DNA from: an uncultured Phycisphaera sp.
GTDB taxonomy: Bacteria; Planctomycetota; Phycisphaerae; Phycisphaerales; Phycisphaeraceae
Assembly (NCBI GenBank): GCA_964543215.1
Contig: CAZIXN010000002.1
Location: 1-41,507, forward strand
Direction of reading: 5' to 3'
Length of the DNA: 41,507 nt
Every line of letters begins with the position of its first letter. The stretch's first letter is position 1. Positions 3,589-41,212 of the stretch are shown here, piece after piece. Made by a program: the position numbers and the translations under genes. The notes beneath the pieces are model-generated. The model was not told the DNA's origin. It searched no databases and saw only the letters and a program-made list of their open reading frames with translations.

Positions 3589-4125
3589 TCACGCTTTGTC
3601 GGTGCGCTCCAACGCCCAAGCGCCCACGACGTTCACGCGCTCCGCCCCCGCCGCGCGATCCGCCAGCGCGTGCGCGACGTGCGCGTGCAGGCATTTGATC
3701 CTGCTGGCGTCGGCAACCCCGCCCACGCCCACGTCGCGCAGCGCCGCCGTCCAGCCCAGCGCTTCGATGGCCTCGAGCTGCGCTTCGCTCAGCAACGCCC
3801 ACCGCGCCGCGGCGTAACGCCCGTGATCCGCCGCCACCGCCGCCGCGAACGTTTCGTCCTGTTCCACAAGGGTTTCGAGCCGTTTGACCCACCCCTGCCG
3901 CTCCAGGTCCGCCACCGCGCGGTGCAACGGCCCGTCACGCAGCCAGTAAAGCGTCGGGAACGGCGCGATCGGCGTCGTGCCATCGGAGGCGAACTTCAGC
4001 GGGAAGACGGTTTCGATTTTGGATTTTGGATTTTGGATTTTGGATTGGCCCGCAGGCAGATCGTGATGCGGCGGAGCCGGCAATCCAAAATCCTCATTCA
4101 AAAATTCAAAATCGCCGACCTTCAC
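3589..4125 (-). CDS. DUF501 domain protein (start uncertain)
   Basis: PFPTLYWLRDGPL and GVGGVADASRIKCLHAHVAHALA match DUF501. No in-frame ATG exists. An in-frame GTG at 4125 overlaps the upstream gene's TGA (GTGA), but this would place the heptad hairpin inside the N-terminal coding region. The 581-aa track ORF (3589..5334) is a read-through artefact. Confidence 0.6.
   Translation of the reverse strand: MKVGDFEFLNEDFGLPAPPHHDLPAGQSKIQNPKSKIETVFPLKFASDGTTPIAPFPTLYWLRDGPLHRAVADLERQGWVKRLETLVEQDETFAAAVAADHGRYAAARWALLSEAQLEAIEALGWTAALRDVGVGGVADASRIKCLHAHVAHALADRAAGAERVNVVGAWALERTDKA
4015..4113. repeat. ORF-less hairpin built from heptanucleotide tandem repeats (GATTTTG)n
   Basis: The left arm at 4015-4048 is gattttg x4 followed by gattgg. 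The right arm is at 4081-4113. A 13-bp perfect core (ggattttggattg / caatccaaaatcc) has an imperfect extension. The loop is about 32 nt. Confidence 0.85.
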
Positions 4126-5286: not shown

Positions 5287-5290
5287 AGCA

Positions 5291-5734
5291 GGGTTCGGGG
5301 AACCGGGAACTGGGATCAGGTAGGAAAGCGTCATGGATCAGGCGAGTTATCGGAAGTTGAACGCGTGGCAGAAGGCGATGGATGCGTTCGATGCCGTGTA
5401 TGCGTTGTCGCGGGGTTTTCCTGCCGATGAACGCTTCGGGTTGACGCCGCAAGTGCGACGCGCCGCTTTGTCCGTACCTTCGAATATCGCCGAAGGCTAC
5501 GGACGGAAACATCGAAAGGCTTACCTGCAACACCTGTAAATCGCTCGCGGCTCGCTGATGGAGGTCGAAACCCAACTGATCGCCGCCGTGCGACAGAACA
5601 TGTGTTCCCGGGATCAGGCCAAGCCGGTCTGGGAAGCCTTGCAGGAAGTCGGACGATTGCTCAACGGCCTGATCCGATCCCTGGAAAACCGCCCGGACGC
5701 GACACCCGACCCCTGATCCCCGTTCCCCGAACCC
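5291..5734. repeat. Inverted-repeat-bounded cassette A (arms 5291-5320 and 5712-5734) enclosing a 4HB ORF
   Basis: gggttcggggaac (5291-5303) is complementary to gttccccgaaccc (5722-5734). gggatcagg (5312-5320) is complementary to cctgatccc (5712-5720). An 8-nt bulge interrupts the left arm. The arms are G-rich repeats of about 7 nt (gggttcg/gggaacc/gggaact/gggatca). Confidence 0.8.
5333..5716 (+). pseudogene. four-helix-bundle protein (23S rRNA intervening-sequence protein / Avd-like family) interrupted by an in-frame TAA
   Basis: The 5333-5536 part encodes KLNAWQKAMD...ERFGLTPQVRRAALSVPSNIAEGYGRKHRKAYLQHL. A TAA follows at 5537-5539. The same frame continues IARGSLMEVETQLIAAV... to TGA at 5714-5716. 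The family motif (F/L)LxIAxGSxxExxxxL spans the stop. Confidence 0.8.
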
Positions 5735-5741
5735 CGCTCCC

Positions 5742-6819: not shown

Positions 6820-7806
6820 TCAACCCCGCGTCGCCAGCCACGCCACGTACCCGCCGTACGACAGCAGCAACACCCCCGCCTCCGGCCGGGTGAGCGACTT
6901 GCCCGACAACGCCAGCGGCAGCAGCGCCACCGAGAAGCCGGCCATCACCAGCAGGTCCACGATGCCCCCGGCCGGCAGGTCGATCGGCGAAATCGCCGCG
7001 GTGGTCCCGAAAATGAACAGCAGGTTGTAGATGTTGCTGCCCACGATGTTCCCGATCGCCAGGTCGGTCTGACCCTTGCGCGCCGCGATCAGACACGTCG
7101 CCAGCTCCGGCAGCGACGTGCCGATGGCCACCACCGTCAGCGCGATCACCACCTCCGGCACGCCCAGCGCCGTCGCCACGCCGGTGGCGCCCACGACCGT
7201 GCCCTGACCGCCGACAATCAGCAGCGCCAGCCCCGCCAGCACCAGCCCGATCGACGCGGACATCGACATCGACGCTTTTCCAACGGCCTCAACGCCGCTG
7301 GTTTCGGTACCGACCGCCTCGAAGCTCTGGTTCCGTGACCGCAGCGCATCGGCCAACGTGTAGTACAGAAACACGCCGAACAGCAGCAGCAGCACGATCC
7401 CGTCGTCGCGGTCGAACCGATCGAACTCCCGCCCGGTCAGCAGACGATCTTCCGCCAACACCAGCACCGCCAGCGTCGAAAGCACCATCATCGGCAGCTC
7501 GCGCACGATCACCGTGTTGTGCACCGCCAGCACGCGGTACATCGCCGTGATCCCCAGCAGCAACCCGATGTTCGCGATGTTTGACCCCACGACGTTCCCG
7601 AAGCCCACAGACGCATCGCCGCGGTACGCCGCCGCCAGGTTCACCACCAGCTCGGGCGTGCTCGTCCCGAACGCCACCACCGTCAGCCCGATCACCAGCG
7701 ACGGCACGCCCAGCCGCTCCGCCAACGCCACCGCGCCCTTGACCAGCCACACGCCGCCCAGCAGCAGCAACGCCAACCCGCCCAGCAAAAACGCCGCATC
7801 GAGCAT
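6820..7806 (-). CDS. calcium/cation antiporter (CaCA / YrbG-like Na+/Ca2+ exchanger)
   Basis: Two alpha-repeats are present: GFGNVVGSNIANIGLLLG and AIGNIVGSNIYNLLFIFG, plus GTSTPEL and GTSLPEL. ATG at 7806. The track ORF start at 7815 is TTG. Confidence 0.85.
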   Translation of the reverse strand: MLDAAFLLGGLALLLLGGVWLVKGAVALAERLGVPSLVIGLTVVAFGTSTPELVVNLAAAYRGDASVGFGNVVGSNIANIGLLLGITAMYRVLAVHNTVIVRELPMMVLSTLAVLVLAEDRLLTGREFDRFDRDDGIVLLLLFGVFLYYTLADALRSRNQSFEAVGTETSGVEAVGKASMSMSASIGLVLAGLALLIVGGQGTVVGATGVATALGVPEVVIALTVVAIGTSLPELATCLIAARKGQTDLAIGNIVGSNIYNLLFIFGTTAAISPIDLPAGGIVDLLVMAGFSVALLPLALSGKSLTRPEAGVLLLSYGGYVAWLATRG

Positions 7807-11635: not shown

Positions 11636-12466
11636 ATGCCCATCCCCACCGCCCTCTTCGACCTCACCGGACAGACCGCCCTCATCACCGGCGGGGCCTC
11701 GGGCATCGGCCTGGCCATCGCCGAGGCCTTCGTCATGCACGGCGGCAAGGTCATCGTCGGCTCACGCACCGTCGAAAAAGTCCAGGCCGCCGTCGACCGA
11801 CTCAACAAGCTCGACTCCCCCCACCCCCACGACGACGCCGAACCCGTCGCCGCCGGCGTCGCGCTGGATGTCGAAGACCAGAAATCCGTCGATCACGCCG
11901 TGAAAAAATGCATCGACATCCACGGCGGGCTGCACGTCGCCGTCAACTCCGCCGGCATCATGTGCAAGAAGGACACCTTCGAACTAAAGGCCGACGAAAT
12001 CAACCAGCTCTTCAACATCCACGTCACCGGCGCGCTGCGCGTCAGCCAGTCCGCCGGCCACGTCTTCCGCGAACAGCACCAGGGCCTGATCCTCAACATC
12101 GCCTCCATCTCCAGCTTCGTCGACCTCACCGGCGTCACCGCCTACGCCGCCGCCAAAAACGCGATGCTCGGCCTCACCCGCAGCCTCGCCAACGAATGGG
12201 CCAAGTTCGGCATCCGCTGCAACGGCATCGCGCCCGGATTCGTCCCCACCGACATCAACCGCAAAATGATCGAAGGTACCGACCGCGGACGACGCATCCT
12301 CGAACACACCCCGATGGCCCGCTTCGGCACCGCCGACGAAATCGCCGGCGCCGCCGTGTATCTCGCCAGCCCCGCCGGCAAATTCGTCAACGGCCACACG
12401 ATCGTGGTCGACGGCGGATATTTGGCCTGCGGCATCGGCGACAGCGTCGCGCCGTGGGCGGAGTGA
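11636..12466 (+). CDS. SDR family oxidoreductase (FabG / gluconate-5-dehydrogenase-like)
   Basis: TALITGGASGIGLAIAEAF is the TGxxxGxG motif. YAAAK is the catalytic YxxxK. The PGFVPTD block is also present. Confidence 0.85.
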   Translation: MPIPTALFDLTGQTALITGGASGIGLAIAEAFVMHGGKVIVGSRTVEKVQAAVDRLNKLDSPHPHDDAEPVAAGVALDVEDQKSVDHAVKKCIDIHGGLHVAVNSAGIMCKKDTFELKADEINQLFNIHVTGALRVSQSAGHVFREQHQGLILNIASISSFVDLTGVTAYAAAKNAMLGLTRSLANEWAKFGIRCNGIAPGFVPTDINRKMIEGTDRGRRILEHTPMARFGTADEIAGAAVYLASPAGKFVNGHTIVVDGGYLACGIGDSVAPWAE

Positions 12467-12506
12467 CATAAACCAAGTATTTAGAGCGATTTGCATGATT
12501 TCTGGC

Positions 12507-12592
12507 CAGTGGCACAGGCTTCCAGCCGGTGATTCTCGAAGCGAAAACGTTCGGCCTGACGGCCGATCACAGGCTGGAAGCCTGTGCCACTG
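12507..12592. repeat. Long palindromic element (27-bp stem, one mismatch)
   Basis: cagtggcacaggcttccagccggtgat (12507-12533) is complementary to atcacaggctggaagcctgtgccactg (12566-12592). The loop is 32 nt. An outer 7-bp pair is ttagagc (12481-12487) / gctctaa (12605-12611). It lies just after the SDR stop, at the edge of the low-GC islet. Confidence 0.85.
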
Positions 12593-12638
12593 ATGACGCA
12601 AAGTGCTCTAACTGCTAGAAATCAAGTAGTTTGATGAT

Positions 12639-12857
12639 ATGGACTCGCCACGTTCCTACCACGTCAGCGACGGCGACTGGCTGCTTACGTTCACTGAAGA
12701 CGACGATGGCTGGTATTGCATCACCTGCCCGTCGATGCCCGGACTCGTGACCCAGGCGCGAACGCTTGCCGAGGGATTCGAGATGGCGCGAGACGCCCGC
12801 GACCTGCTGATGCGCGGTCGTCAAAAACGAAAGGAACTGGACCCATCAAACCCGTGA
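12639..12857 (+). CDS. HicB-like antitoxin-fold protein (UPF0150 / HicB N-terminal domain only, no DNA-binding domain)
   Basis: LLTFTEDDDGWYCITCPSMPGLVTQARTLAEGFEMARDARDLLM matches the HicB core (..DEDGGY.A.VP.LPGC.TQG.TLEEA..N..EAI.L.L). The protein is 72 aa. GC is clearly below the flanks. Confidence 0.7.
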   Translation: MDSPRSYHVSDGDWLLTFTEDDDGWYCITCPSMPGLVTQARTLAEGFEMARDARDLLMRGRQKRKELDPSNP

Positions 12858-13351
12858 ACTTCAAAGTGCGTGGTCCACTTGATATTCCGCACTGGAAATT
12901 ACGCGGTGGCCGTTCCATCGATTCAGCGTGTGCCATCGAGTTTTTCGGTTGGTATCCGCACCTGCGAACCGCTAAAGGGGTTTATGTCTTCGGGATGCGG
13001 TTCGGTGCGAAGGTTCGGCCGTATTATGTCGGGAAAGCCACCAAAACTTTTGGGCAAGAAGTGTTCGCGCCGACCAAGCTGGTGCATTACAACCACGCGA
13101 TGGCCAATCAAAAACTCGGTACGCCGTGCTTGTTTCTAGTCGTTGCTCCCCGACACGGTGCCACTCCGCAGTTGATCGGCCACGCCGAACGCGAACTGAT
13201 TCGGATGGCCGCCCAGGCCAATCCGAATCTCTGCAATAAAGTCGGCATCAAGCCACCTCGCTGGGCCATCCAGGGCGTTATTCGCGGCAACGCCGGCGGC
13301 AAGTCGGCGTCTGCCAAAGCTTTTGCCAAAACCTTCGGGCTGGATGGCTGA
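12854..13351 (+). CDS. GIY-YIG-like domain protein (putative nuclease), translationally coupled to the HicB-like gene
   Basis: The GTG at 12854 overlaps the hicB-like TGA (GTGA). KGVYVFGMRFGAKVRPYYVGKAT resembles UvrC GVY...IYVGKA. A downstream block HAERELIRMAAQANPNLCNK supplies the conserved Glu...Asn. GC is about 55%. The longer track ORF from 12716 overlaps the hicB-like gene out of frame and is rejected. Confidence 0.6.
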   Translation: MNFKVRGPLDIPHWKLRGGRSIDSACAIEFFGWYPHLRTAKGVYVFGMRFGAKVRPYYVGKATKTFGQEVFAPTKLVHYNHAMANQKLGTPCLFLVVAPRHGATPQLIGHAERELIRMAAQANPNLCNKVGIKPPRWAIQGVIRGNAGGKSASAKAFAKTFGLDG

Positions 13352-14942: not shown

Positions 14943-15029
14943 GCAGCAGCTAGAAGCTAGAAGCTAGGAGCAAGCTGGAAGCTCGTTGACTTTGCTCGGC
15001 CTTCTAACTTCTAGCTTCTTGCTTCTTCC
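14943..15029. repeat. ORF-less hairpin built from heptanucleotide tandem repeats (GCTAGAA)n
   Basis: The left arm is gctagaagctagaagctaggagcaagctggaagc (14949-14982). The right arm is ggccttctaacttctagcttcttgcttcttcc (14998-15029). The 12-bp perfect core pairs agaagctagaag (14952-14963) with cttctagcttct (15008-15019), with imperfect extensions. The right arm encodes the TatC C-terminal tail. Confidence 0.8.
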
Positions 15030-18807: not shown

Positions 18808-19065
18808 GTGGGCTTTTCCATCACGCTCGGCCGATCGCGCCGCCCGCAAAACCCCCGCGACATGATCGCCGCCCACTCGGCGTTCCTCACATGGGCCATG
18901 CACGACGACCCCGACGCCGGCGCAAAACTCCCCCGCATCCCCACACGACGCCTGGACCCCTACCCGCCCGGCGGCGGCGGCTTCTCCGAACTCATGCGCC
19001 TCCCCGCCGCCAAAGAACTCGCCGCCCATTGGTGGCAATCCGCCATCCAGCGCGTCCGCGACTGA
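18808..19065 (+). CDS. small hypothetical protein
   Basis: The frame has high GC3 and ends ...HWWQSAIQRVRD* (TGA at 19063-19065). The start is GTG at 18808 or ATG at 18862. No family was recognised. Confidence 0.4.
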   Translation: MGFSITLGRSRRPQNPRDMIAAHSAFLTWAMHDDPDAGAKLPRIPTRRLDPYPPGGGGFSELMRLPAAKELAAHWWQSAIQRVRD

Positions 19066-19071
19066 GCATTT

Positions 19072-19188
19072 GGAACCACGGATGAACTCGGATGAACACG
19101 GATGGACACCGATCGTCCGTGGCAAGTGGCCCAACCGTGTCTTTCAGCTCTTGTCCATCTGTGCTCATCTGTGTTCATCCGTGGTTCC
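19072..19188. repeat. ORF-less hairpin built from about 10-nt tandem repeats (CGGATGAACN)n
   Basis: The left arm is ggaaccacggatgaactcggatgaacacggatggacac (19072-19109). The right arm is gtccatctgtgctcatctgtgttcatccgtggttcc (19153-19188). The outer 16 bp are perfect (ggaaccacggatgaac / gttcatccgtggttcc) and the inner part is imperfect. The loop is about 43 nt. Confidence 0.85.
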
Positions 19189-19239
19189 TTTCTCCCTGCC
19201 GAAATCTTCCGGGTGCTCTATCGTGCGGGGGTCTCCCTG

Positions 19240-19968
19240 ATGCCGATAGTGCTTGCCTCGCCCCTGCCCTCCGGGACCCACCCACCCATGAACGACGCCG
19301 CCTCGCCCTCCGCCGACCTGCCCGCCCCCGACGCCGTCGCCCCGCCCGCCGGCCCGATCCGCGCGACCATCAGCGGAGGCTACCGCGTCCGCCTGCTCAT
19401 CCTCGCGCTGGGCCTGCTCGCGTTCGCCGGCTGGTCCCTCTACGACGGCATTTACGCCTGGCCGAAAAAACAAGCCATGTACGAAGACCTCCAGGTTTTC
19501 ATGGAGCAGCACGACGACTGGCAGACCCGCTGGTCCGACCACGCCCGCGCCCAGGGCTACCCCGAGTCGGTCGTCAAGAACCCCACCAAACTCAAGCCCC
19601 TGGACAAATACGACATCGCCACGCAGTACGGCATGGCCGCCGTCTGCGGACCCATCGGCCTGTGGTTCGCGTACTGCTGGTTCGCCGCCGGCCGACGCTA
19701 CGTCGAGGCCGACGAACGCGGCGTCCGCACCCACGCCAACGTCGATCTCACCTGGACCCAGATCGAAAAGATCGAAGACGACCGCTGGAAGTCCAAGGGC
19801 ATCGCCTATCTGAAATACGCCGGCGACCAACGCATCCTCCTGGACGACTGGAAATTCGACCGCGACGCGACGACCGCGATCTACAAACTCGCGGAGTCGA
19901 AAATGGCAGGAAATCAAGAAAATCGGGAAAAGCCTGAAAATCAAGAAAATCCGGACAAGCTGCCGTGA
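19240..19968 (+). CDS. hypothetical membrane protein (two predicted TM helices)
   Basis: ATG at 19240, with an alternative at 19288. TM segments are VRLLILALGLLAFAGWSLY and AAVCGPIGLWFAYCWFAA. The C-terminal tail AGNQENREKPENQENPDKLP is encoded by the repeat arm. Confidence 0.6.
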   Translation: MPIVLASPLPSGTHPPMNDAASPSADLPAPDAVAPPAGPIRATISGGYRVRLLILALGLLAFAGWSLYDGIYAWPKKQAMYEDLQVFMEQHDDWQTRWSDHARAQGYPESVVKNPTKLKPLDKYDIATQYGMAAVCGPIGLWFAYCWFAAGRRYVEADERGVRTHANVDLTWTQIEKIEDDRWKSKGIAYLKYAGDQRILLDDWKFDRDATTAIYKLAESKMAGNQENREKPENQENPDKLP

Positions 19969-20430
19969 GTCGGCGGGTCCGCGAGGAGTTGCTGGATCGT
20001 TTCCTTCTCTTTTCCGTTCGCATCCTTCGCCTCTGCCGAGTGCTTGACTCGGCTTCCGCCCCGCGAAGGCTGGTGGATCAGTTGGTCGGCTCCGGCACGT
20101 CTCCCGGCGCACAGATGGCCGAAGCCGACGAAGCGATGAGCGATCGCGATTATCTGAAATCGGTACGCATCGCTCTCAAAGAACTCGGCGAATGCCGCTA
20201 TTGGCTCCGACTGATCACCGACGCCGAGTTGGTTCCCACGCATCAACTCGAAGACCTGATCCGTGAATGCGATGAACTTCGCGCGATACTTCGCACCATT
20301 TCCCATCGAACCAAAGACAACCTCGATCAATCCAATCGCTGAAGCCTCGGGTGTCCCAAGCTTCGTCCCCCTTTCATCAATTCCCCCTTTTCCAAATTTT
20401 CCTGATTTTCTTGATTTTCTTGATTTTCCT
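19909..20430. repeat. Inverted-repeat-bounded cassette B (arms about 19909-19955 and 20385-20430) enclosing a 4HB ORF
   Basis: gaaaatcaagaaaatc (19936-19951) is perfectly complementary to gattttcttgattttc (20404-20419, and again at 20413-20428). The arms are tandem GATTTTC-type units of about 7-9 nt. Confidence 0.8.
19965..20342 (+). CDS. four-helix-bundle protein (23S rRNA intervening-sequence protein / Avd-like family)
   Basis: REELLDRFLLFSVRILRLCRVL...VDQLVGSGTSPGAQMAEADEAMSDRDYLKSVRIALKELGECRYWLRLI matches the TIGR02436-type pattern (..QL.RS.tS.GAN..EA......DF..K..IA.KE..Et.YWL.L). The GTG start overlaps the upstream TGA (GTGA). Confidence 0.8.
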   Translation: MSRRVREELLDRFLLFSVRILRLCRVLDSASAPRRLVDQLVGSGTSPGAQMAEADEAMSDRDYLKSVRIALKELGECRYWLRLITDAELVPTHQLEDLIRECDELRAILRTISHRTKDNLDQSNR

Positions 20431-20435
20431 CAGTT

Positions 20436-21908
20436 TTACGTTTGCGAAGCAACCGCCCGCAGCTCCGGCGACACCACCTCCCGCCACAGAATCTTCAAAC
20501 ACGCCGCCGCCGGGATCGCGATCAGCAGGCCCAGCAATCCCGCCAGCGATCCGCCGATCAGCACGACCAGCAGCACCGTCAGCGCATCAAGGTTCGTCGC
20601 CTTGCCCTGCACGATCGGCTCGACGACGTACGCATCGAGGCTCTGCGCCACGATGAACACGATCGACGGCACGATCACCGCCCCCACCAGCGAGATCGAC
20701 TCGCCGTTCTGCAGGTTCAGCAGGCACGCCACGATCACCGTCGCCGGCCACACCACCAGCCCGACATACGGCACGAGCCCCAACACCCCGCCCGCCACGC
20801 CCAGCAACAGCGCAAAGGGCGCCGCATCCGTCAGCAGCAACCCCAGCGTCAGCAACACCGCCATGATGCTGCCCTGAATCAGCCGGCCGCGGATGAACGC
20901 CGACACCGACCGGTCCATCATCCCCAGGATTTCGTAGGTCCGCCGCTTCTTGCTCTGCGGCACGTACGGATCGAACCAGCTCACGAAATCGCGGAAACGC
21001 CAGGTCGCAAAGAAAAACACGAACGCCACCACCACCACAAACACCGACAGATAGCCGATCGCACCGAACACCGAACCCACCGCCCCGGCCCCCAGGTCCA
21101 ACGCCGTGCTGCTCGCCTGGGCCACCGCCTTCCAGTTCACGTCGCTCAGCGAGCCGGTCAGCGAATCCAGGAACGACCCGCCCGACTCGGCGTCGCTCGG
21201 AGCCGAACCCGGCGACACCGCATCCACCACCGCATCCACCACCGCGTCCGACATCGCCGACAGGTCGCCCGTCTCCACCGATTCGCTGCTCGCGCCGGCT
21301 TCGCCGACGCCCCCGCTTGCGACGTGGTCGTTGGCCGCGGTCGCCGACGCCTCCGCCGATGCCGGCTCGCCTTCGCCCGATGCCGGCTTGCCGGACTTGT
21401 CGAAAAACGAGTGCGCCACCACGTCCAACTGCTTCAGCGTCGCCGACAACCACTGCACCGCCGGATCGACCACCGCCGGCAGATCGTCCCGGTTCGCAAG
21501 ATCGTGAATCGTCGCGGGGATCCGCTGCAGCAGCTGCAGCGCCTGCCAAAGCATGATCGGGATCAGCACGAGCAACCCCGCCACGACCACGCCCAGCGAC
21601 CCGAGCATCCCCGCCGCCGTCACCGGCCGAGGCACGCGGAACCGCTGGTGCAGATACGTCACCGCCGGGTTGAGGATGTACGCCAGCGTCAGCCCCACGA
21701 GAATCGGCGTGAGCACCGGGCGGGTCGCGTACACCAGCCGGAACACCGCCGGCACCACGTACGACAACACCGTCATCACCACGATCACGCCCAGGCTCAC
21801 CTGAAACCAGCGCACCCGCCAGAGCGGAACCTGCGGCCGGCCCAGCGGGTCGTAGTCCCGCGGTGAATCAGATCCCGAAGAAGCAACGTCGTGCGGCGTG
21901 TCGGACAT
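20436..21908 (-). CDS. AI-2E family transporter (PerM / UPF0118) with a low-complexity insertion
   Basis: Multi-TM protein. The C-terminal region reads YVGLVVWPATVIV...IVFIVAQSLDAYVVEPIVQGKATNLDALTVLLVVLIGGSLAGLLGLLIAIP, typical of UPF0118. An Ala/Ser/Gly/Asp-rich insert of about 100 aa is present. Confidence 0.8.
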   Translation of the reverse strand: MSDTPHDVASSGSDSPRDYDPLGRPQVPLWRVRWFQVSLGVIVVMTVLSYVVPAVFRLVYATRPVLTPILVGLTLAYILNPAVTYLHQRFRVPRPVTAAGMLGSLGVVVAGLLVLIPIMLWQALQLLQRIPATIHDLANRDDLPAVVDPAVQWLSATLKQLDVVAHSFFDKSGKPASGEGEPASAEASATAANDHVASGGVGEAGASSESVETGDLSAMSDAVVDAVVDAVSPGSAPSDAESGGSFLDSLTGSLSDVNWKAVAQASSTALDLGAGAVGSVFGAIGYLSVFVVVVAFVFFFATWRFRDFVSWFDPYVPQSKKRRTYEILGMMDRSVSAFIRGRLIQGSIMAVLLTLGLLLTDAAPFALLLGVAGGVLGLVPYVGLVVWPATVIVACLLNLQNGESISLVGAVIVPSIVFIVAQSLDAYVVEPIVQGKATNLDALTVLLVVLIGGSLAGLLGLLIAIPAAACLKILWREVVSPELRAVASQT

Positions 21909-22000
21909 CCCGCCAAGCTAACGCTTTGCCTACACGCAGGAAACGCAAGCAAGACAGAAAACGCAGACCACGGAACACAACTGACTCAATCCGCAGCGCT

Positions 22001-22046
22001 GATTTTCTGCATTTGTTGATTTTTTTGCTTTTCCCGATTTTCCTGA
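22001..22046. repeat. Third copy of the GATTTTC-type repeat arm (same orientation as 20385-20430)
   Basis: gcttttcccgattttc (22027-22042) is perfectly complementary to gaaaatcgggaaaagc (19918-19933), which is the outer part of the left arm of cassette B. Confidence 0.75.
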
Positions 22047-22049
22047 TTC

Positions 22050-23372
22050 TCACTCCCGCCCGTACAACCCCGGGGGCAAGTCCGGCGGCTCGACCCGGCG
22101 GTGCGGCTCGGTCAGCGTCTCCAGAAACGCCACGATCGCCTGAACCTGATCCTCGCTCAATCCCAACGCGTGGATCAGCGGCGACTGCACCGGATAATCG
22201 GGGTCGTCCACCTGCGCCCCGCGCGGCTTGCCCACCGCGTTGCCGCCGTTGTACGCCCGCACGGTCACCGGCAGCGACTCGAACAGCCCGTGGTGCATGT
22301 ACGGCCCGGTCCGCGCGATGTGCCGTAAATGCGGCGTCTTGAACGCGCCCCGATCCGCCGGGTCGCCCGTCACCGCAAAGGCGCCGGGGTCGTAGTCGTC
22401 CCGCCGGGTGTAGAGGTGCAGCCCCGTCACGTGCAGCTCGCCGTCCGACAGCATCGGCCCGTGGTGGCAGTTCATACACCGCGCCTGCGTGCGGAACAGA
22501 TGCAACCCCAGCAATTCCTCATCGCTGAACGCAGACGTGTCGCCCGACGCGCTGGCCTGCCGCACGAAGCGATCAAACCGCGAACGCCCCGGCTCGATAG
22601 TCCGCACAAACGTCGCCACCGCCTGCGCGATCCGCTCGAGCGTCACCGGCGATCCCGCATCCGCGTGACCGTCCGCGAGCCGAGGACTGTGTCCTCGCCC
22701 CCCCGGCGACGAAGTTGCTGGCTCATCATCGAACACCGCCGCGAATTGCTCGACGTACGCGGGCACCTCCGCGATCTTCTTCGCCACCTCGTCCCCCACC
22801 CCGTGCATCTCATCGGCGTTGCCGATCACCTTGAGCGTCAGGTCTTCCAGCGACTCCGCCCGCCCGTCCCAGAACAGCCGCTCGAAATGCCCCGACCCCA
22901 GCGCCGTCGGCGCATTGCGGGGCAACACCAATCGGTCCGTCCCGAAACTCACCGTCCGCCCGTCCGCCCAGCCCAAATCCGGGTCGTGACACGAGGCGCA
23001 ACTCATCTGGTTGCTCCGGCTCAGTCGCGGATCAAAAAACAGCTGCTCGCCGAGTTCCGACTTCGCTTGGCTGTACGGATTGTCCGCCGGAAACACGACC
23101 TCGGGCACGGTCCCCAACTCCCGCGCCTCCACCCCCGGGTCCACCTCAAAAGGCGGCCAGTGGTCGGGATCGCCGGCGTAAGCGGCGCGGAGGTCCAACG
23201 ACGGCGTCTCGATCGAAGCGTCACGCTGCGGCTCGGGCGTGGTCAGGCAACCCGCGACCGCCAGGCAGCCGACCAAAACCCCCGCCGGCAACGATCGCAA
23301 CAACCAACTGCGCGGCCCATCGTTTGTCAGACGCATCTTTGAATGATACGGAACCACCCGCAGCGATTTCAC
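22050..23372 (-). CDS. di-haem cytochrome c peroxidase (CCP/MauG family), probable lipoprotein
   Basis: Two haem sites are present: [16 protein letters not shown] and [16 protein letters not shown] lipobox-like LAVAGC is present. The GTG at 23372 overlaps the upstream TGA. An alternative ATG lies at 23336. Confidence 0.85.
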
Positions 23373-38149: not shown

Positions 38150-39472
38150 ATGAGCAGGGACGTTCTCATCACGGGGCTCGGGCCGGTGTCGGCGCTCGGT
38201 CTGGGCAAGGACGACAACTGGGAAGCGCTCTGCGCCGGGCGGTGCGGCCTGGCGGTGATCACGTCGTTCGACGCCACCGGCATGGGCGCGCCGATCGCCG
38301 GCGAAGTCCCCGAATTCAGCGTCCGCGACTTCGTGCCCAAGAGCTACCGCAAGGCGACCAAGGTGATGGCCCGCGACATCGAGTTGGCCGTGGCCGCCGC
38401 GGATCTGGCCGTGCGCGACGCCGGATTGGTCACGCCCGGCACCGAACCCGAAGCCCAACGCACCTACGCCGCCGAGCGCCTGGGTTGCCACATCGGGGCC
38501 GGGTTGATCGCCGCGGATACCGATGAACTCACCGCCGCGCTCGCCACCTCCACCGATGCGAAAGGCAATTTCGATTTGCAGCACTGGGGGCGGGAAGGCA
38601 TGCAGCAGCTCACGCCGCTGTGGCTGCTGAAGTATCTGCCGAACATGCTGGCCTGCCACGTGACGATCGTGCACGATGCGCAGGGCCCGAGCAACACGAT
38701 CACCTGCGGCGAGGCGTCGGGGGGCCTGAGCATCGGCGAGAGCCTGCGGGTGATTCAGCGCGGAGACGCCGACGTCTGCCTCGCCGGCGGCGCGGTCAGC
38801 CCCATGAACCCGATGGCGTATTACCGGCAAGTCCTCACCGGGCGACTCGTCGGCGACCACGCCGTGAAAAACGCCGGCGGCTGCGTCCGACCCTTCGATC
38901 AGAACCAGAACGGCGGCGCCGTCGGCGAAGGCGGCGGCATCGTCGTGCTCGAAGCCGCCGACACGTTCGCCAATCGCGACGGCACGAAGCAGGCCTACGC
39001 CCGGCTCCTCGGCTTCGCATCCACGCAGACCGTCCACCGCGAAACGCACAACGCCACGCCCGACCCGCAAGGCGCCGGCATCGCCTCGGCCATCCGCATC
39101 GCGCTGCGCGACGCGGCGTGTGCGCCCGACGACGTCGACGCCATCGTGCCCTTCGGTCTGGGCCATGCCGACTGGGACGCCCCCGAAGCCGAAGCGCTCC
39201 GCGCCATCTTCGGCGAACGACTCAACGCTGTGCCCGTCGTGTCGCTCAAGTCCAGCGTCGGCAACCTGCACGCCGGCGCGGGCGGCTACGAACTCGCCGT
39301 CGCCGCGCTCATGCTGCACCACGGCCGGATCGTCCCCATCCTCAACCGCGGCGTCCCGATGCCCGGCTTCTCCTGCAAGAAACTGGACGGAACGCTCAAG
39401 CGCATCCTCGTCGTCGCCACCAGCGTCGGCGGACAGAACACCGCCTGCGTGCTGGGCAGAGTTGAGTCTTGA
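38150..39472 (+). CDS. beta-ketoacyl synthase-like protein lacking the Cys-His-His triad (chain-length-factor-like partner)
   Basis: A gapless by-eye alignment to my recollection of the E. coli FabF blocks gave three substitutions. GPSNTITCGEASGGLSIG versus GPSISIATACTSGVHNIG puts Glu at the Cys163 position. VPFGLGHADWDAPE versus NAHGTSTPAGDKAE puts Phe at His303. KSSVGNLHAGAGG versus KSMTGHLLGAAG puts Asn at His340. The stop TGA at 39470-39472 lies inside the repeat arm. Confidence 0.8.
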   Translation: MSRDVLITGLGPVSALGLGKDDNWEALCAGRCGLAVITSFDATGMGAPIAGEVPEFSVRDFVPKSYRKATKVMARDIELAVAAADLAVRDAGLVTPGTEPEAQRTYAAERLGCHIGAGLIAADTDELTAALATSTDAKGNFDLQHWGREGMQQLTPLWLLKYLPNMLACHVTIVHDAQGPSNTITCGEASGGLSIGESLRVIQRGDADVCLAGGAVSPMNPMAYYRQVLTGRLVGDHAVKNAGGCVRPFDQNQNGGAVGEGGGIVVLEAADTFANRDGTKQAYARLLGFASTQTVHRETHNATPDPQGAGIASAIRIALRDAACAPDDVDAIVPFGLGHADWDAPEAEALRAIFGERLNAVPVVSLKSSVGNLHAGAGGYELAVAALMLHHGRIVPILNRGVPMPGFSCKKLDGTLKRILVVATSVGGQNTACVLGRVES

Positions 39473-39907
39473 GGGTTGAGTCTTGAGGGTTGAGACTTGA
39501 GGGTTGAGACTTGAGCCGAGATCATCGCAAACTGCGGGCGTTCGAACTTGCCGACCAGTTCGCCATCGAGGCGTATCGCGTCACGTCGCGACTCCCGACC
39601 GAAGAGCGATTCGGACTGACCAGCCAGATCCGCCGAGCCGCCGTCTCGGTTCCAACCAACATCGTCGAAGGCTGCGGACGTGAAACCACCAGAGACTTCT
39701 GCCACTTCCTGACCATCGCACTGGGTTCCGCCCGGGAAGCCGCTTACCTGATTTCCCTCGCCGAACGTCTAGGCTATATCGGTGCCGACGACGCTCGGCA
39801 GTTGACCGACCTTGGAATCGAAACGATGCGCGTCATCACCGGCCTGCACCGCTCTCTCAAACAAGCGTAATTCCATGCTTCCTCAAGACTCAACCCTCAA
39901 GACTCAA
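39461..39907. repeat. Inverted-repeat-bounded cassette C (arms 39461-39515 and 39881-39910) enclosing a 4HB ORF
   Basis: ttgagtcttgagggttgagtcttgagg (39462-39488) is the perfect reverse complement of cctcaagactcaaccctcaagactcaa (39881-39907), 27 bp. The left arm is 7-8 heptads (gagtctt/gagggtt/gagactt). Confidence 0.9.
39511..39870 (+). CDS. four-helix-bundle protein (23S rRNA intervening-sequence protein / Avd-like family)
   Basis: [80 protein letters not shown] is the canonical family pattern. There is no ATG. A TTG start at 39511 lies inside the left arm. Confidence 0.8.
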
Positions 39908-41212
39908 TCCTCCCCCCGCATCGTCATCACCGGCCTGGGCTGGGTCACGCCGCTCGGCCACGACCTCGACACCGTCTGGAACGCCTTGCTCCAAGGCACA
40001 TCCGGCGTCTCCGCCACGTCGCGCTTCGACGCCTCGACCTTCCCCACCACCTTCTCCGCGCAGGTCAAAAACTACGACCACCGCACCTTCGTCCGCCATC
40101 CCGAGCTGCACGAACACGTCGGCCTCAACACCGCATTCGCGCTCGGGGCCGCCGTGCAGGCGTGGCGACAAGCCGGGCTCGAAGCGTTTGCCACCTCCGG
40201 GGGGCTCGACCGCGATCGGCTGGGCATCTACCTCGGGGCCGGCGAAGGCACGATCGACTTCGAGCCCTACGTCGCCACCAACCTCGCGGGCTGGGACGCC
40301 CAAGCACAGACCGTCAACGGCAAAAAGTGGGCCGCCGCCGCCAAACAAGCCTTCGACGCGCGGCGCGAAGCGGAGCAGGAACCCAACATGCCGCTGTCGC
40401 ATCTGGCGCTCGAGTTCGACGCGCGCGGCCCGGCCAGCAACTGTCTGACGGCTTGCGCCGCCTCGACGCAAGCCATCGGTGAAGCCGCCGAGACCTTGCG
40501 CCGCGGCGACGCGGATGTCATGCTCACCGGCGGCTGCCACACCATGATCCACCCGCTGGGCATGACCGGCTTCAACCGACTCACGGCGCTCTCCAACCGC
40601 AACGACGAACCGACCACCGCGTCACGACCCTTCTCCGCCGACCGCGACGGATTCGTCATGGGCGAAGGCGCCGGCATCCTGGTCCTCGAAACCCAACAAC
40701 ACGCCCAGGCACGCGGGGCCAACATCCTCGCCGAGGTCGCCGGCTACGGTTCGACGGCGGACGCCTACCGAATTACGGATATTCATCCCGAAGGCCGCGG
40801 TGCCGCGCTGGCCATGCGCCAAGCCCTCGACGAAGCCAACATCCAACCGTCGGAGGTCGACTGGATCGCCGCGCACGGCACGGGCACGCAAGAGAACGAC
40901 AAGATCGAAACCCGCGCGATCAAATCCGTGTTTCAACAAGCAGACGACCCCGCCACCGTCCCGCCCGTGTCCTCCATCAAGTCCATGCTCGGCCACCTCA
41001 TCGCCGCCGCCGGCGCCGTCCAGGCCATCACCGCCGTCCTGGCCATCCAACGCGGCGCGATCCCCCCCACCGCCAACCTGCACAAGCCCGCCCCCGAGCT
41101 CGACCTCGACTACGTCCCCAACACCGCCCGCCACACCACGGTCAACACCGTTCTGTCCAACAGCTTCGGCTTCGGCGGCCAGAACGACACGCTGGTGATC
41201 CGCCGGGCTTGA
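39875..41212 (+). CDS. beta-ketoacyl-[ACP] synthase II-like (catalytically complete KS)
   Basis: RIVITGLGWVTPLG is the N-terminal block. LTACAASTQAIG carries the Cys, AAHGTGTQENDKIE a His, and SSIKSMLGHLIAAAG the other His. The C-terminus is NSFGFGGQNDTLVI. The first 11 codons after the ATG (LPQDSTLKTQS) are encoded by the right repeat arm. Confidence 0.9.
   Translation: MLPQDSTLKTQSSPRIVITGLGWVTPLGHDLDTVWNALLQGTSGVSATSRFDASTFPTTFSAQVKNYDHRTFVRHPELHEHVGLNTAFALGAAVQAWRQAGLEAFATSGGLDRDRLGIYLGAGEGTIDFEPYVATNLAGWDAQAQTVNGKKWAAAAKQAFDARREAEQEPNMPLSHLALEFDARGPASNCLTACAASTQAIGEAAETLRRGDADVMLTGGCHTMIHPLGMTGFNRLTALSNRNDEPTTASRPFSADRDGFVMGEGAGILVLETQQHAQARGANILAEVAGYGSTADAYRITDIHPEGRGAALAMRQALDEANIQPSEVDWIAAHGTGTQENDKIETRAIKSVFQQADDPATVPPVSSIKSMLGHLIAAAGAVQAITAVLAIQRGAIPPTANLHKPAPELDLDYVPNTARHTTVNTVLSNSFGFGGQNDTLVIRRA

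Follow-up and report, generated by a model that had tools for sequence, protein, structure and literature searches.

The window, the whole 41,507-nt stretch of DNA analysed here, carries at 19897-20447 a four-helix-bundle (4HB) gene set between two imperfect, inverted arms of ~50 nt that are built from a 9-bp unit, GAAAATCNN. The features of this cassette and its surroundings, with the names used below, are as follows.

19288-19968, + strand: host membrane-protein gene, whose final ~20 codons are the left arm
19897-19959, + strand: left arm (L), ~6 9-bp units, GGAAATCAA GAAAATCGG GAAAAGCCT GAAAATCAA GAAAATCCG GACAAGCTG
19965-20342, + strand: 4HB gene, PF05635/S23p family ("23S rRNA IVS protein", IVS being intervening sequence), 2RLD-like subfamily
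20380-20447, + strand: right arm (R1), TTTTCCAAA TTTTCCTGA TTTTCTTGA TTTTCTTGA TTTTCC, complementary to L
20436-21908, - strand: AI-2E family transporter gene (perM-like, PF01594), an ancestral neighbour outside the element
21935-21975, + strand: array B, an older GAAACGCAG-type 9-bp array beside the perM start, common to the relative L001 (27/32 identical)
22001-22048, + strand: third arm (R2), an array of the GATTTTC type that is oriented like R1 and ends 1 nt from the ccp stop codon
22050-23372, - strand: di-haem cytochrome c peroxidase gene (ccp), part of the context

The ORF at 19965-20342 matched PF05635 in a profile search (E=4.3e-16; 59.5 bits against a cutoff of 33.8) and PDB entry 2RLD with an E of 1.1e-15, and its exact protein sequence is present in 3 further assemblies. 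An earlier note on this DNA had assigned it to a different subfamily from the other two 4HB genes of the window, and this was borne out, with 19965-20342 being closest to 2RLD and the other two closest to 2GSC. The upstream host membrane protein is conserved but belongs to no Pfam family; the alignment of its orthologues indicates that the gene likely starts at 19288 rather than at the listed ORF start of 19102. Its ORF ends ...AGNQENREKPENQENPDKLP, coded by the left arm, which read as protein gives the tail GNQENREKPENQENPDKL, in agreement with the proposal that the arm supplies the C-terminus of this protein. The overlap reported between the two genes is also present, in that the 4HB GTG (19965-19967) lies over the upstream TGA (19966-19968) as GTGA, and translation of 4HB is probably coupled to that of the upstream gene. 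At the other end of the cassette, the outer edge of R1 holds the perM stop codon (TAA, 20436-20438). The 9-nt (3-codon) period may have arisen because the left arm doubles as a coding tail, since slippage by 9 nt would preserve the host frame.

The perfect matches between arms on which the earlier note was based were all recovered: gaaaatcaagaaaatc at 19936-19951 has its complement, gattttcttgattttc, at 20404-20419 and again at 20413-20428, and gaaaatcgggaaaagc at 19918-19933 has its complement, gcttttcccgattttc, at 22027-22042. When extended, the L:R1 arms span 49-50 nt with 74-76% complementarity (80% over 40 nt), and the L:R2 arms span 37 nt with 86% complementarity. The minimum-free-energy fold of the cassette is closed by the L:R1 stem (z = -3.45, reached by 0 of 100 shuffles); the inner pair forms a true hairpin-type cassette enclosing the gene, as had been proposed. 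The arm matches exceed chance within the 41.5-kb window, in which 14 copies of GATTTTC were counted where 3.3 +/- 1.8 are expected; none of 100 shuffles reached this number. Eight of the 14 occurrences fall in the three clusters, and no GATTTTC-type array was found elsewhere in the window.

A synteny comparison, which the earlier note had proposed, showed the order and orientation membrane protein (+), perM (-), ccp (-) in all relatives and revealed an insertion polymorphism among them. The 4HB gene and the right arm are present at this site in the window, L096 and L002 and absent in L001, L004, L088, L090 and L091, whose spacers here are 18-73 nt long; hairpins at the empty sites of L001 and L004 were not significant. 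The right arm occurs only in relatives having 4HB, and since gene and right arm share their gains and losses at the site, the arms belong with the gene. Moreover, both arms switch unit together, being of the GAAACGCAG type in L002 (37/40 complementary) and of the GAAAATC type in the window and L096. Occupied and empty sites are therefore both seen for the cassette, with the left arm persisting at 'empty' sites: the left-arm array, visible as a periodic ETQE/ENQE tail, is also found in L001, L004 and L088, which lack 4HB, so that the left arm may be left over from an ancestral cassette or may be older than the cassette. Tails of the host-gene orthologues are generally acidic and of low complexity. 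Because 4HB is present only in the window, L096 and the distant L002, vertical descent would require at least two losses.

The third arm has a different distribution. R2 is homologous to the cassette arms, having their unit order in common and not merely their composition, but it is missing from every relative examined for it (L001, L003, L088, L090 and L091); it is therefore not a conserved regulatory feature. The nested layout proposed earlier, with R2 as an outer arm, was not upheld, in that perM next to ccp is the ancestral arrangement, with spacers that are compact in relatives, and a role for R2 as the boundary of a larger element fails as well, R2 being an addition of the window lineage beside the ccp stop codon. 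No local hairpin was found for R2 when it was tested with the adjacent array B: there is no inverted repeat at seed 6, the R2/array B region folds no better than shuffles (z = -0.3 to -1.1), and the B:R2 duplex energy lies inside the shuffle range. The best match to R2 is the L096 right arm (36/41), to which window R1 is identical at 35/44 positions, and on this difference (88% versus 80% identity over ~41-44 nt) R2 may retain an older right-arm sequence. Extra arm copies were also found near 8 of 26 other cassettes, as well as in L017. R2 is best explained as a product of copying from one arm to another or of recombination between arms.

The layout of a gene between inverted arrays is seen in all three 4HB genes of the window, each with its own repeat unit, and the window also contains three hairpins of similar construction that enclose no gene.

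5287-5741, + strand: cassette 1, arms 5287-5321 and 5704-5741, 7-bp GGGAACC-like units, 83% complementary
39454-39915, + strand: cassette 3, arms 39454-39515 and 39881-39915, GAGGGTT/GAGTCTT units, 91-94% complementary
4014-4114, no strand assigned: gene-less hairpin, (GGATTTT)n against its complement, 33-nt loop, z = -6.3 / -4.5
14945-15026, no strand assigned: gene-less hairpin, (AGCTAGA)n against its complement, z = -1.1 / -2.4, weaker than the others
19072-19188, no strand assigned: gene-less hairpin, (CGGATGAACA)n, 37-nt arms 89% complementary, z = -8.0 / -7.8

Cassette 1 encloses a PF05635-like ORF (5333-5716) with an in-frame TAA at 5537-5539, and cassette 3, which is located between two ketoacyl-synthase genes, encloses a PF05635 gene at 39511-39870. 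The folds of both are likewise closed by the arms (z = -3.84 and -4.49, respectively), with an arm period of 7/14 compared to 9 in the cassette at 19897-20447. Within the 41.5 kb covered, the three cassettes are highly diverged and their arms differ. Among the gene-less hairpins, that at 14945-15026 is placed between convergent HD-domain and TatC genes, and that at 19072-19188 is an insertion of the window lineage, 7 nt past the stop codon of a conserved 85-aa ORF. No recognisable target-site duplication surrounds any of the six elements of the window, save a weak TTT at the hairpin at 19072, and none of the window genes scanned has a transposase domain.

The same architecture was observed beyond the window. 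In a survey restricted to the canonical (2GSC-like) subfamily, an inverted-pairing score of at least 14 was obtained for 29 of 58 unrelated metagenomic 4HB genes, compared to only 1 of 45 displaced control positions, at loci ranging from 43 to 71% GC. In 26 of the 29 paired loci the arm period was 7 or 14, and the upstream arm was G-skewed in 26 of 29. A homologue search with the 4HB of 19965-20342 itself returned only that sequence and one fragment. Two canonical relatives, L052 and L055, carry one 473-bp gene-plus-arms block, 98.1% identical, at two unrelated sites. The termini of this block are inverted repeats (GTAACT...AGTTAC), and the 8-bp target-site duplications that flank it differ: the first site has TACAAATC/TACAAATC and the second AAAGAGAA/AAAGAGAA.

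L and R2 are inverted relative to each other, with 32 of 37 positions complementary and a perfect 16-mer among them, and the earlier note had raised the possibility that these repeats, 2.1 kb apart, mediate inversion of the 4HB-perM segment between them, which would amount to a phase-variation switch. We consider this highly improbable, because the segment has a single orientation in four independent run assemblies of PRJNA315555 (SRR3310977, SRR3311145, SRR3311151 and SRR3311153), which differ only by SNPs, because the invariant gene orientation in every relative argues against inversion, and because none of the window genes scanned has a recombinase or invertase domain. RecA-dependent recombination requires roughly 25 nt of identity, and the longest exact identity between L and R2 is 16 nt; flipping the segment would also part perM from its upstream region. 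A different role for R2 would be as part of an RNA switch, in which competing long-range pairings form on a read-through transcript (for example, a ccp-perM mRNA running antisense through 4HB), with the complement of L pairing to that of R1 or of R2 and thereby altering accessibility of the perM 5'-UTR or mRNA stability. The energies favour such a switch, the isolated L:R2 duplex being predicted at -52.3 (+ strand) and -55.9 (- strand) kcal/mol, beyond the -39.5 and -44.8 of L:R1 and the shuffle values of about -24, so that R2 may have some role. In addition, R2 is situated upstream of perM and R1 in the 3' region of this gene, and a promoter/terminator scan of 18900-22300, otherwise uninformative, found no canonical terminator between the convergent 4HB and perM genes. 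However, the switch demands a single ~2.2-kb transcript with antisense read-through of the neighbouring gene, co-transcriptional folding would favour the nearer partner over R2, and extra arm copies are common near other cassettes that lack a switch geometry. The arm mismatches are strand-symmetric and thus give no sign of RNA-level selection: at non-Watson-Crick arm positions in 36 cassettes there was no excess of G.U over A.C (43 versus 51, p = 0.47), and sense-RNA stem selection is therefore not demonstrated. For these reasons we regard an RNA switch as quite unlikely.

It is also conceivable that the locus contains no element, and that each of the three arrays stands alone, as a low-complexity tract prone to slippage or as a set of protein-binding iterons, within one local 9-bp family. 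In that case the tail repeat would be the host gene's own, 4HB would be an ordinary resident gene, and the complementarity of the tail to R1 and R2 would follow simply from a common unit in opposite orientation. The tail array without 4HB in L001, L004 and L088 fits this explanation, as do the acidic, low-complexity orthologue tails and the presence of array B near the perM start in both the window and L001, where it is partnerless. In contrast, the restriction of the right arm to relatives with 4HB and the concerted change of unit in both arms between L002 and the window/L096 argue against it, as does the recurrence of the layout in every window 4HB gene (3/3) and in 29/58 elsewhere, against 1/45 controls. 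The unit in L052/L055, moreover, moves as a block with target-site duplications. Taken with these observations, independent arrays around a resident gene are an unlikely explanation.

We conclude that the cassette is mobile-element-like and that R2 is most likely a stray extra arm copy, not an inversion switch. The region 19897-20447 is likely an IVS-type cassette, that is, a small, dispensable unit of one PF05635 4HB gene within two ~50-nt imperfect inverted tandem-array arms. The arms would be the terminal inverted repeats of the element, their complementarity being maintained by arm-to-arm copying (templated conversion plus slippage) and not by sense-RNA selection alone. Once transcribed, they would close a long stem around the ORF and, by analogy with 23S rRNA IVSs, RNase III probably cuts this stem, which would free the cassette RNA from the host transcript. 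R2 (22001-22048) would be a displaced extra copy of the right arm, formed in the window lineage when arm arrays were locally duplicated or underwent gene conversion with one another, and thus a by-product without demonstrated function.

The IVSs in the 23S rRNA of Coxiella burnetii and Leptospira resemble the cassette in having a PF05635 gene in the loop, terminal inverted repeats that form a long closing stem, variable-copy short tandem direct repeats just before the start codon, and an element size of ~430-550 nt. In Coxiella, a 28-bp stem of terminal inverted repeats, which RNase III cleaves mid-stem, carries the S23p ORF in its loop, and strain-variable tandem heptamers precede the start; the IVS is viewed as a selfish sequence with a proposed origin from a mobile element (PMC4990558). 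In the present cassette, however, the repeat unit is 9 bp and not 7, and the flanks are protein-coding, with one arm inside coding sequence. Whereas rRNA IVSs sit in helix 9, 25 or 45, the window is without any rRNA: at the gathering threshold, zero Rfam families, rRNA included, were matched in the whole window, and the cassette was therefore filed as IVS-like rather than as an rRNA IVS.

MITEs are non-autonomous elements with terminal inverted repeats and a target-site duplication that are mobilised in trans. The cassettes share with them their small size, inverted ends, presence/absence polymorphism and intergenic positions beside stop codons, together with the terminal inverted repeats and 8-bp target-site duplications of L052/L055, and the gene-less hairpins look like deletion derivatives. 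The present cassette differs in having an intact conserved ORF, and the window copies differ in being without a recognisable target-site duplication. We know of no cognate transposase for such cassettes, and with arms that differ in sequence from copy to copy within a genome, there is no evident common end for a transposase to bind. REP/BIME sequences are likewise intergenic, hairpin-forming repeats found right past stop codons, and can stabilise or process mRNA, but REPs constitute one conserved, RAYT-mobilised family per genome, whereas the repeats of the window differ from locus to locus and none of the window ORFs scanned encodes a RAYT.

Short-period, G-rich intergenic arrays, often in inverted pairs able to form hairpins, are also known from Xanthomonas, Geobacter and, as STRRs, cyanobacteria; they resemble the gene-less hairpins of the window, and the units of cassette 1 are GGGAACC-like. 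Such tandem repeats include convergent pairs of the heptamer GGGAATC in Xanthomonas (PMC4692102) and heptanucleotide arrays in Geobacter (PMC2700814). They are genome-wide families of one unit each for which these papers draw no link to PF05635 (PMC4692102, PMC2700814), whereas the window loci each have their own unit, and several enclose a 4HB gene. The 4HB fold itself is related to that of Avd of diversity-generating retroelements (DGRs), with which PF05635 has been discussed (PMC10053308). Avd is a pentamer, and the 2RLD and 2GSC entries have five chains each. The window ORFs scanned contained no reverse transcriptase domain, and a template/variable repeat pair was not noticed either; the neighbouring genes instead encode the membrane protein, the AI-2E transporter and cytochrome c peroxidase, and the role of the 4HB protein is presumably different.

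The nature of rRNA IVSs and the role of the S23p/4HB protein have been an open question since the early 1990s. Our results show that the gene-in-repeat-hairpin unit also lives outside rRNA, that it is gained or lost between close relatives, and that one case (L052/L055) bears a textbook transposition signature; the "IVS" thereby shifts from an rRNA curiosity to a testable class of tiny mobile cassettes. In the literature searched on PF05635, TIGR02436, S23 protein with repeats, and heptamer hairpins, this architecture was not found described outside rRNA. TAACTGA direct repeats (PMC4679880) are a separate phenomenon. A more speculative proposal, which we hold to be possible rather than probable, is that PF05635 genes and their inverted arms of tandem repeats make up a large family of miniature mobile cassettes, undescribed so far, in many bacterial lineages, with 23S rRNA IVSs as the special case that landed in rRNA, gene-less hairpins as deletion derivatives, and the units as arrays of binding sites that the pentameric 4HB protein of the same cassette would recognise, so that protein and arms would co-evolve. 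If this were true, the GGGAATC pairs of Xanthomonas and the three gene-less hairpins of the window would be such deletion derivatives. The unit may also be connected with the heptamer inverted-repeat pairs, hitherto unexplained, of Xanthomonas and other genomes. For annotation, host ORFs may extend into the arms and so gain periodic tails, and stray copies of an arm beside such cassettes should not be taken for switches.

The ORF at 19965-20342 matches PF05635, the "23S rRNA-intervening sequence protein" family (E=4.3e-16), and is one of three genes of this four-helix-bundle (4HB) family in the window (4HB homologues of solved structure are 2RLD and 2GSC). All three are flanked by inverted arms of ∼30-50 nt made of short tandem repeats, with a different repeat unit at each cassette.

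PF05635 cassettes of the window and elements neighbouring cassette 2.
5287-5321 and 5704-5741: arms of cassette 1; GGGAACC-like unit; ORF with an in-frame TAA
19897-19959 (L) and 20380-20447 (R1): arms of cassette 2; unit GAAAATCNN
20436-21908, minus strand: perM, AI-2E transporter gene
21935-21975: array B, beside the perM start
22001-22048: third arm (R2)
22050-23372, minus strand: ccp, di-haem cytochrome c peroxidase gene
39454-39515 and 39881-39915: arms of cassette 3; units GAGGGTT/GAGTCTT; arms 91-94% complementary

Re-checking the sequence bore out what the earlier note had described at cassette 2: the 16-mer at 19936-19951 has exact complements at 20404-20419 and 20413-20428, the 16-mer at 19918-19933 has one at 22027-22042, the upstream ORF ends in a TGA that shares bases with the GTG start of the 4HB gene, and the tail of that ORF is encoded by the left array. 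The arm matches are not due to chance, as GATTTTC occurs 14 times in this window of 66.6% GC compared with 3.3 expected, a count reached by no shuffle. Eight of the 14 copies fall inside L, R1 and R2, each of which is a tandem repeat of the same 9-bp unit, and no array of GATTTTC units was found elsewhere in the 41.5-kb window. Extended pairing covers 49-50 nt for L and R1 (74-76% complementarity; 80% over 40 nt) and 37 nt for L and R2 (86%). In predicted transcript folds, the arms form the closing stem at cassettes 1, 2 and 3 (z = −4.49, −3.45 and −3.84, respectively). The upstream host ORF runs into the left arm before its stop codon at two of the three cassettes (39454-39472 and 19897-19968), and thus the arms supply C-terminal residues of host proteins; the outer ends of the repeat elements in the window lie 0-8 nt from adjacent stop codons. 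Cassette 3 is flanked by two ketoacyl-synthase genes. At cassette 1, the PF05635-like ORF (5333-5716) has a TAA at 5537-5539 within the otherwise conserved motif ...YLQHL*IARGSL..., reflecting either a pseudogene, read-through or a sequencing issue.

The placement of a 4HB gene between inverted arrays is general for the family. An alignment of the two canonical (2GSC-like) 4HB proteins, used to scan metagenomes, returned 80 loci of 43-71% GC. For each gene, the 200-nt flanks on its two sides were searched for their best inverted pairing without gaps, and that pairing gave the score. In this survey, which covers the canonical subfamily on metagenomic contigs, 29 of 58 4HB genes scored ≥14 compared with 1 of 45 control positions displaced along the same contigs, leaving 26 distinct cassettes once duplicate loci were dropped. 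The arm repeat period was 7 in 17 loci, 14 in 9 and 8 in 3, and the arm sequence was locus-specific with a recurrent AGGCT-like core; the upstream arm showed a sense-strand G-skew at 26 of 29 loci.

Two different large contigs (L052 and L055) with unrelated surroundings have in common a single block of 473 bp, 98.1% identical, in which an intact 4HB gene of 117 codons lies together with the repeat arms. The block starts with GTAACT and ends with AGTTAC; copies of TACAAATC border it on both sides at one of its two sites, and copies of AAAGAGAA do so at the other. Its ends are terminal inverted repeats and its flanks 8-bp target-site duplications, which is evidence for gene and arms being mobile as one unit; two further pairs of loci add to it. 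Between two loci that are 79% identical (L079 and L082), the unit type is kept, with copy numbers of about 11 and 6, and the flanks differ. Another pair (L034 and L063, 88% identical) differs in the units of the upstream arm, AGGCTAC vs GAGGCTT; the downstream arm of L034 agrees with its upstream arm, and the L063 contig does not include the downstream arm region.

Among characterised systems, the 23S rRNA intervening sequence (IVS) comes closest. The S23p ORF of Coxiella occupies the loop of a stem formed by 28-bp terminal inverted repeats, with two or three tandem heptamers (GACAGAT), variable between strains, ahead of the start codon, and the stem is cut in its middle by RNase III; the IVS is treated there as a selfish element, with earlier proposals of a mobile-element origin cited (PMC4990558). 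Cassette 2 matches every sequence feature of this system except location in rRNA, and we therefore file it as IVS-like rather than as an IVS proper: an S23p element of IVS type that has 9-bp units and lies among protein-coding genes. Given this likeness, the arms would be where a mobile or dispensable unit ends; in RNA, they may pair into a stem of RNase III type by which the cassette is insulated from the messages of its host. An RNA-only role is counted against by the non-Watson-Crick arm positions, which show no sense-strand preference for G.U pairs (43 vs 51, p = 0.47; 36 cassettes); this would fit complementarity being kept up in the DNA, with one arm serving as template for copying of the other. 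Heptamer repeats are known from Xanthomonas, where GGGAATC tandem repeats form 70-75 convergent pairs per genome (PMC4692102), and heptamer arrays from Geobacter (PMC2700814), in neither case with a link drawn to PF05635. In the part of the literature covered, no account turned up of PF05635 cassettes that lie outside rRNA and have repeat arms and target duplications. The general pattern makes the nature of IVSs and S23p proteins directly testable.

The earlier note had interpreted R2 as the outer arm of a nested cassette and the ∼2.1-kb segment as a possible inversion switch. The cassette is real and R2 is truly related to its arms, with which it has unit order in common, but R2 is not a nested outer arm and the analysis gave no support to an inversion switch. 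Among the relatives compared, R2 occurs in the window only, 1 nt past the ccp stop codon, and the perM-ccp spacer is compact (∼64 nt) and array-free in L003, L088, L090 and L091, which argues against a nested outer arm. Inverted-repeat, fold and duplex tests gave no significant local pairing partner for R2. Assemblies of four runs from the source (a 42,589-nt contig of a stromatolite metagenome, PRJNA315555) show one order and orientation, with SNP differences only and identical repeat numbers, and orientation is the same in all relatives. Because, in addition, L and R2 share at most 16 nt of uninterrupted identity and the scanned genes of the window yielded no domain of a recombinase, transposase or reverse transcriptase, inversion is unsupported at the level of consensus assemblies, which a rare inverted subpopulation could escape. 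Pairing of L with R2 instead of R1 on a 2.2-kb read-through RNA is physically possible, since the isolated L:R2 duplex is computed to be more stable than L:R1 (−52.3/−55.9 vs −39.5/−44.8 kcal/mol), although R2 is not conserved and nothing points to such a transcript.

A third arm is typical of this class of element, as 8 of the 26 distinct cassettes have additional copies of their own arm repeat within ∼1.5 kb and one locus (L017) has five arrays of a single unit inside 1 kb. The best match to R2 is the genuine right arm of the orthologous locus L096 (36/41); R1 scores 35/44 against it and resembles left arms (35/40 with the L096 left arm). On the simplest reading, for which these small identity margins are only suggestive, R2 is a displaced paralogue that keeps the older right-arm sequence and R1 was later re-homogenised against L. 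Array B is an older GAAACGCAG-type array common to the window and L001 (27/32 identical).

Orthologous loci were recovered from Phycisphaerae/Planctomycetota MAGs. Besides the window, two of these carry the 4HB gene and a right arm: L096, whose 4HB is 76% identical and shows the same GTGA overlap, and L002, which is more distant (4HB 51% identical). The cassette is absent from L001, L004, L088, L090 and L091, where the convergent membrane protein-perM spacer is 18-73 nt; no significant hairpin was found in the spacers tested (L001 and L004). Both L002 arms are GAAACGCAG-type (37/40 complementary) and both arms in the window and L096 are GAAAATC-type, and thus the two arms change in concert. 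The left array, which encodes the membrane protein's C-terminal tail, is periodic (ETQESQETQE) even in L001, L004 and L088, which lack the 4HB gene. Two histories would account for this: at least two losses of an ancestral cassette, each leaving the left arm behind in the coding region, or a tail repeat older than the cassette. A 9-nt unit, being three codons, would be a tolerable slippage step within a reading frame, and this would account for the departure of cassette 2 from the usual heptamer.

Several further features were observed. The window has three gene-less, short-loop hairpins in the style of cassette arms (4014-4114, 14945-15026 and 19072-19188), two of them very stable (z = −6.3 for 4014-4114 and −8.0 for 19072-19188), with stems of tandem 7- or 10-bp units particular to each; the hairpin at 19072-19188 is missing from the homologous spacer of L088 and L090. 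The 41.5 kb of the window hold six or more loci with repeat arrays or hairpins, compared with almost none in ∼58 kb of relatives (L001-L004, L088-L092), which suggests proliferation in the window's own lineage. Two AT-rich islands (GC ≤40% in 40-nt windows) at 12459-12658 separate the ORF at 12716-13351 from a 1468-codon ORF that gave no Pfam match; Rfam gave no match at these islands or anywhere in the window. Within perM, in-frame 12-nt and 21-nt tandem repeats (21209-21258 and 21348-21392) form a VDAVVDAVVDAV-type low-complexity insert separating two halves of the AI-2E domain. An independent assembly contig (L087, corresponding to 19498-20428) stops exactly at the final base of the R1 GATTTTC array, which could be an assembly-graph break from repeat-number heterogeneity. 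The L002 4HB gene has an apparent frameshift or TAG near its N-terminus (7722-7790) that may be a sequencing error, the MAG contig having ∼2x coverage. Many one-unit arrays (up to 10 clusters, or arrays of ∼300 nt) are present at L017 (390-1270), L009, L020 and L054, and among these loci a gene-less hairpin lies directly against the right arm of the cassette. Finally, a relative without the 4HB gene (L091, 745-775) has a canonical-looking G-rich array, GGCTGA AGCTGA GGCTGA GGCTGA, lacking an inverted partner; it begins within the membrane-protein stop codon, at the site of the window's cassette, and may be the solo arm of another cassette.
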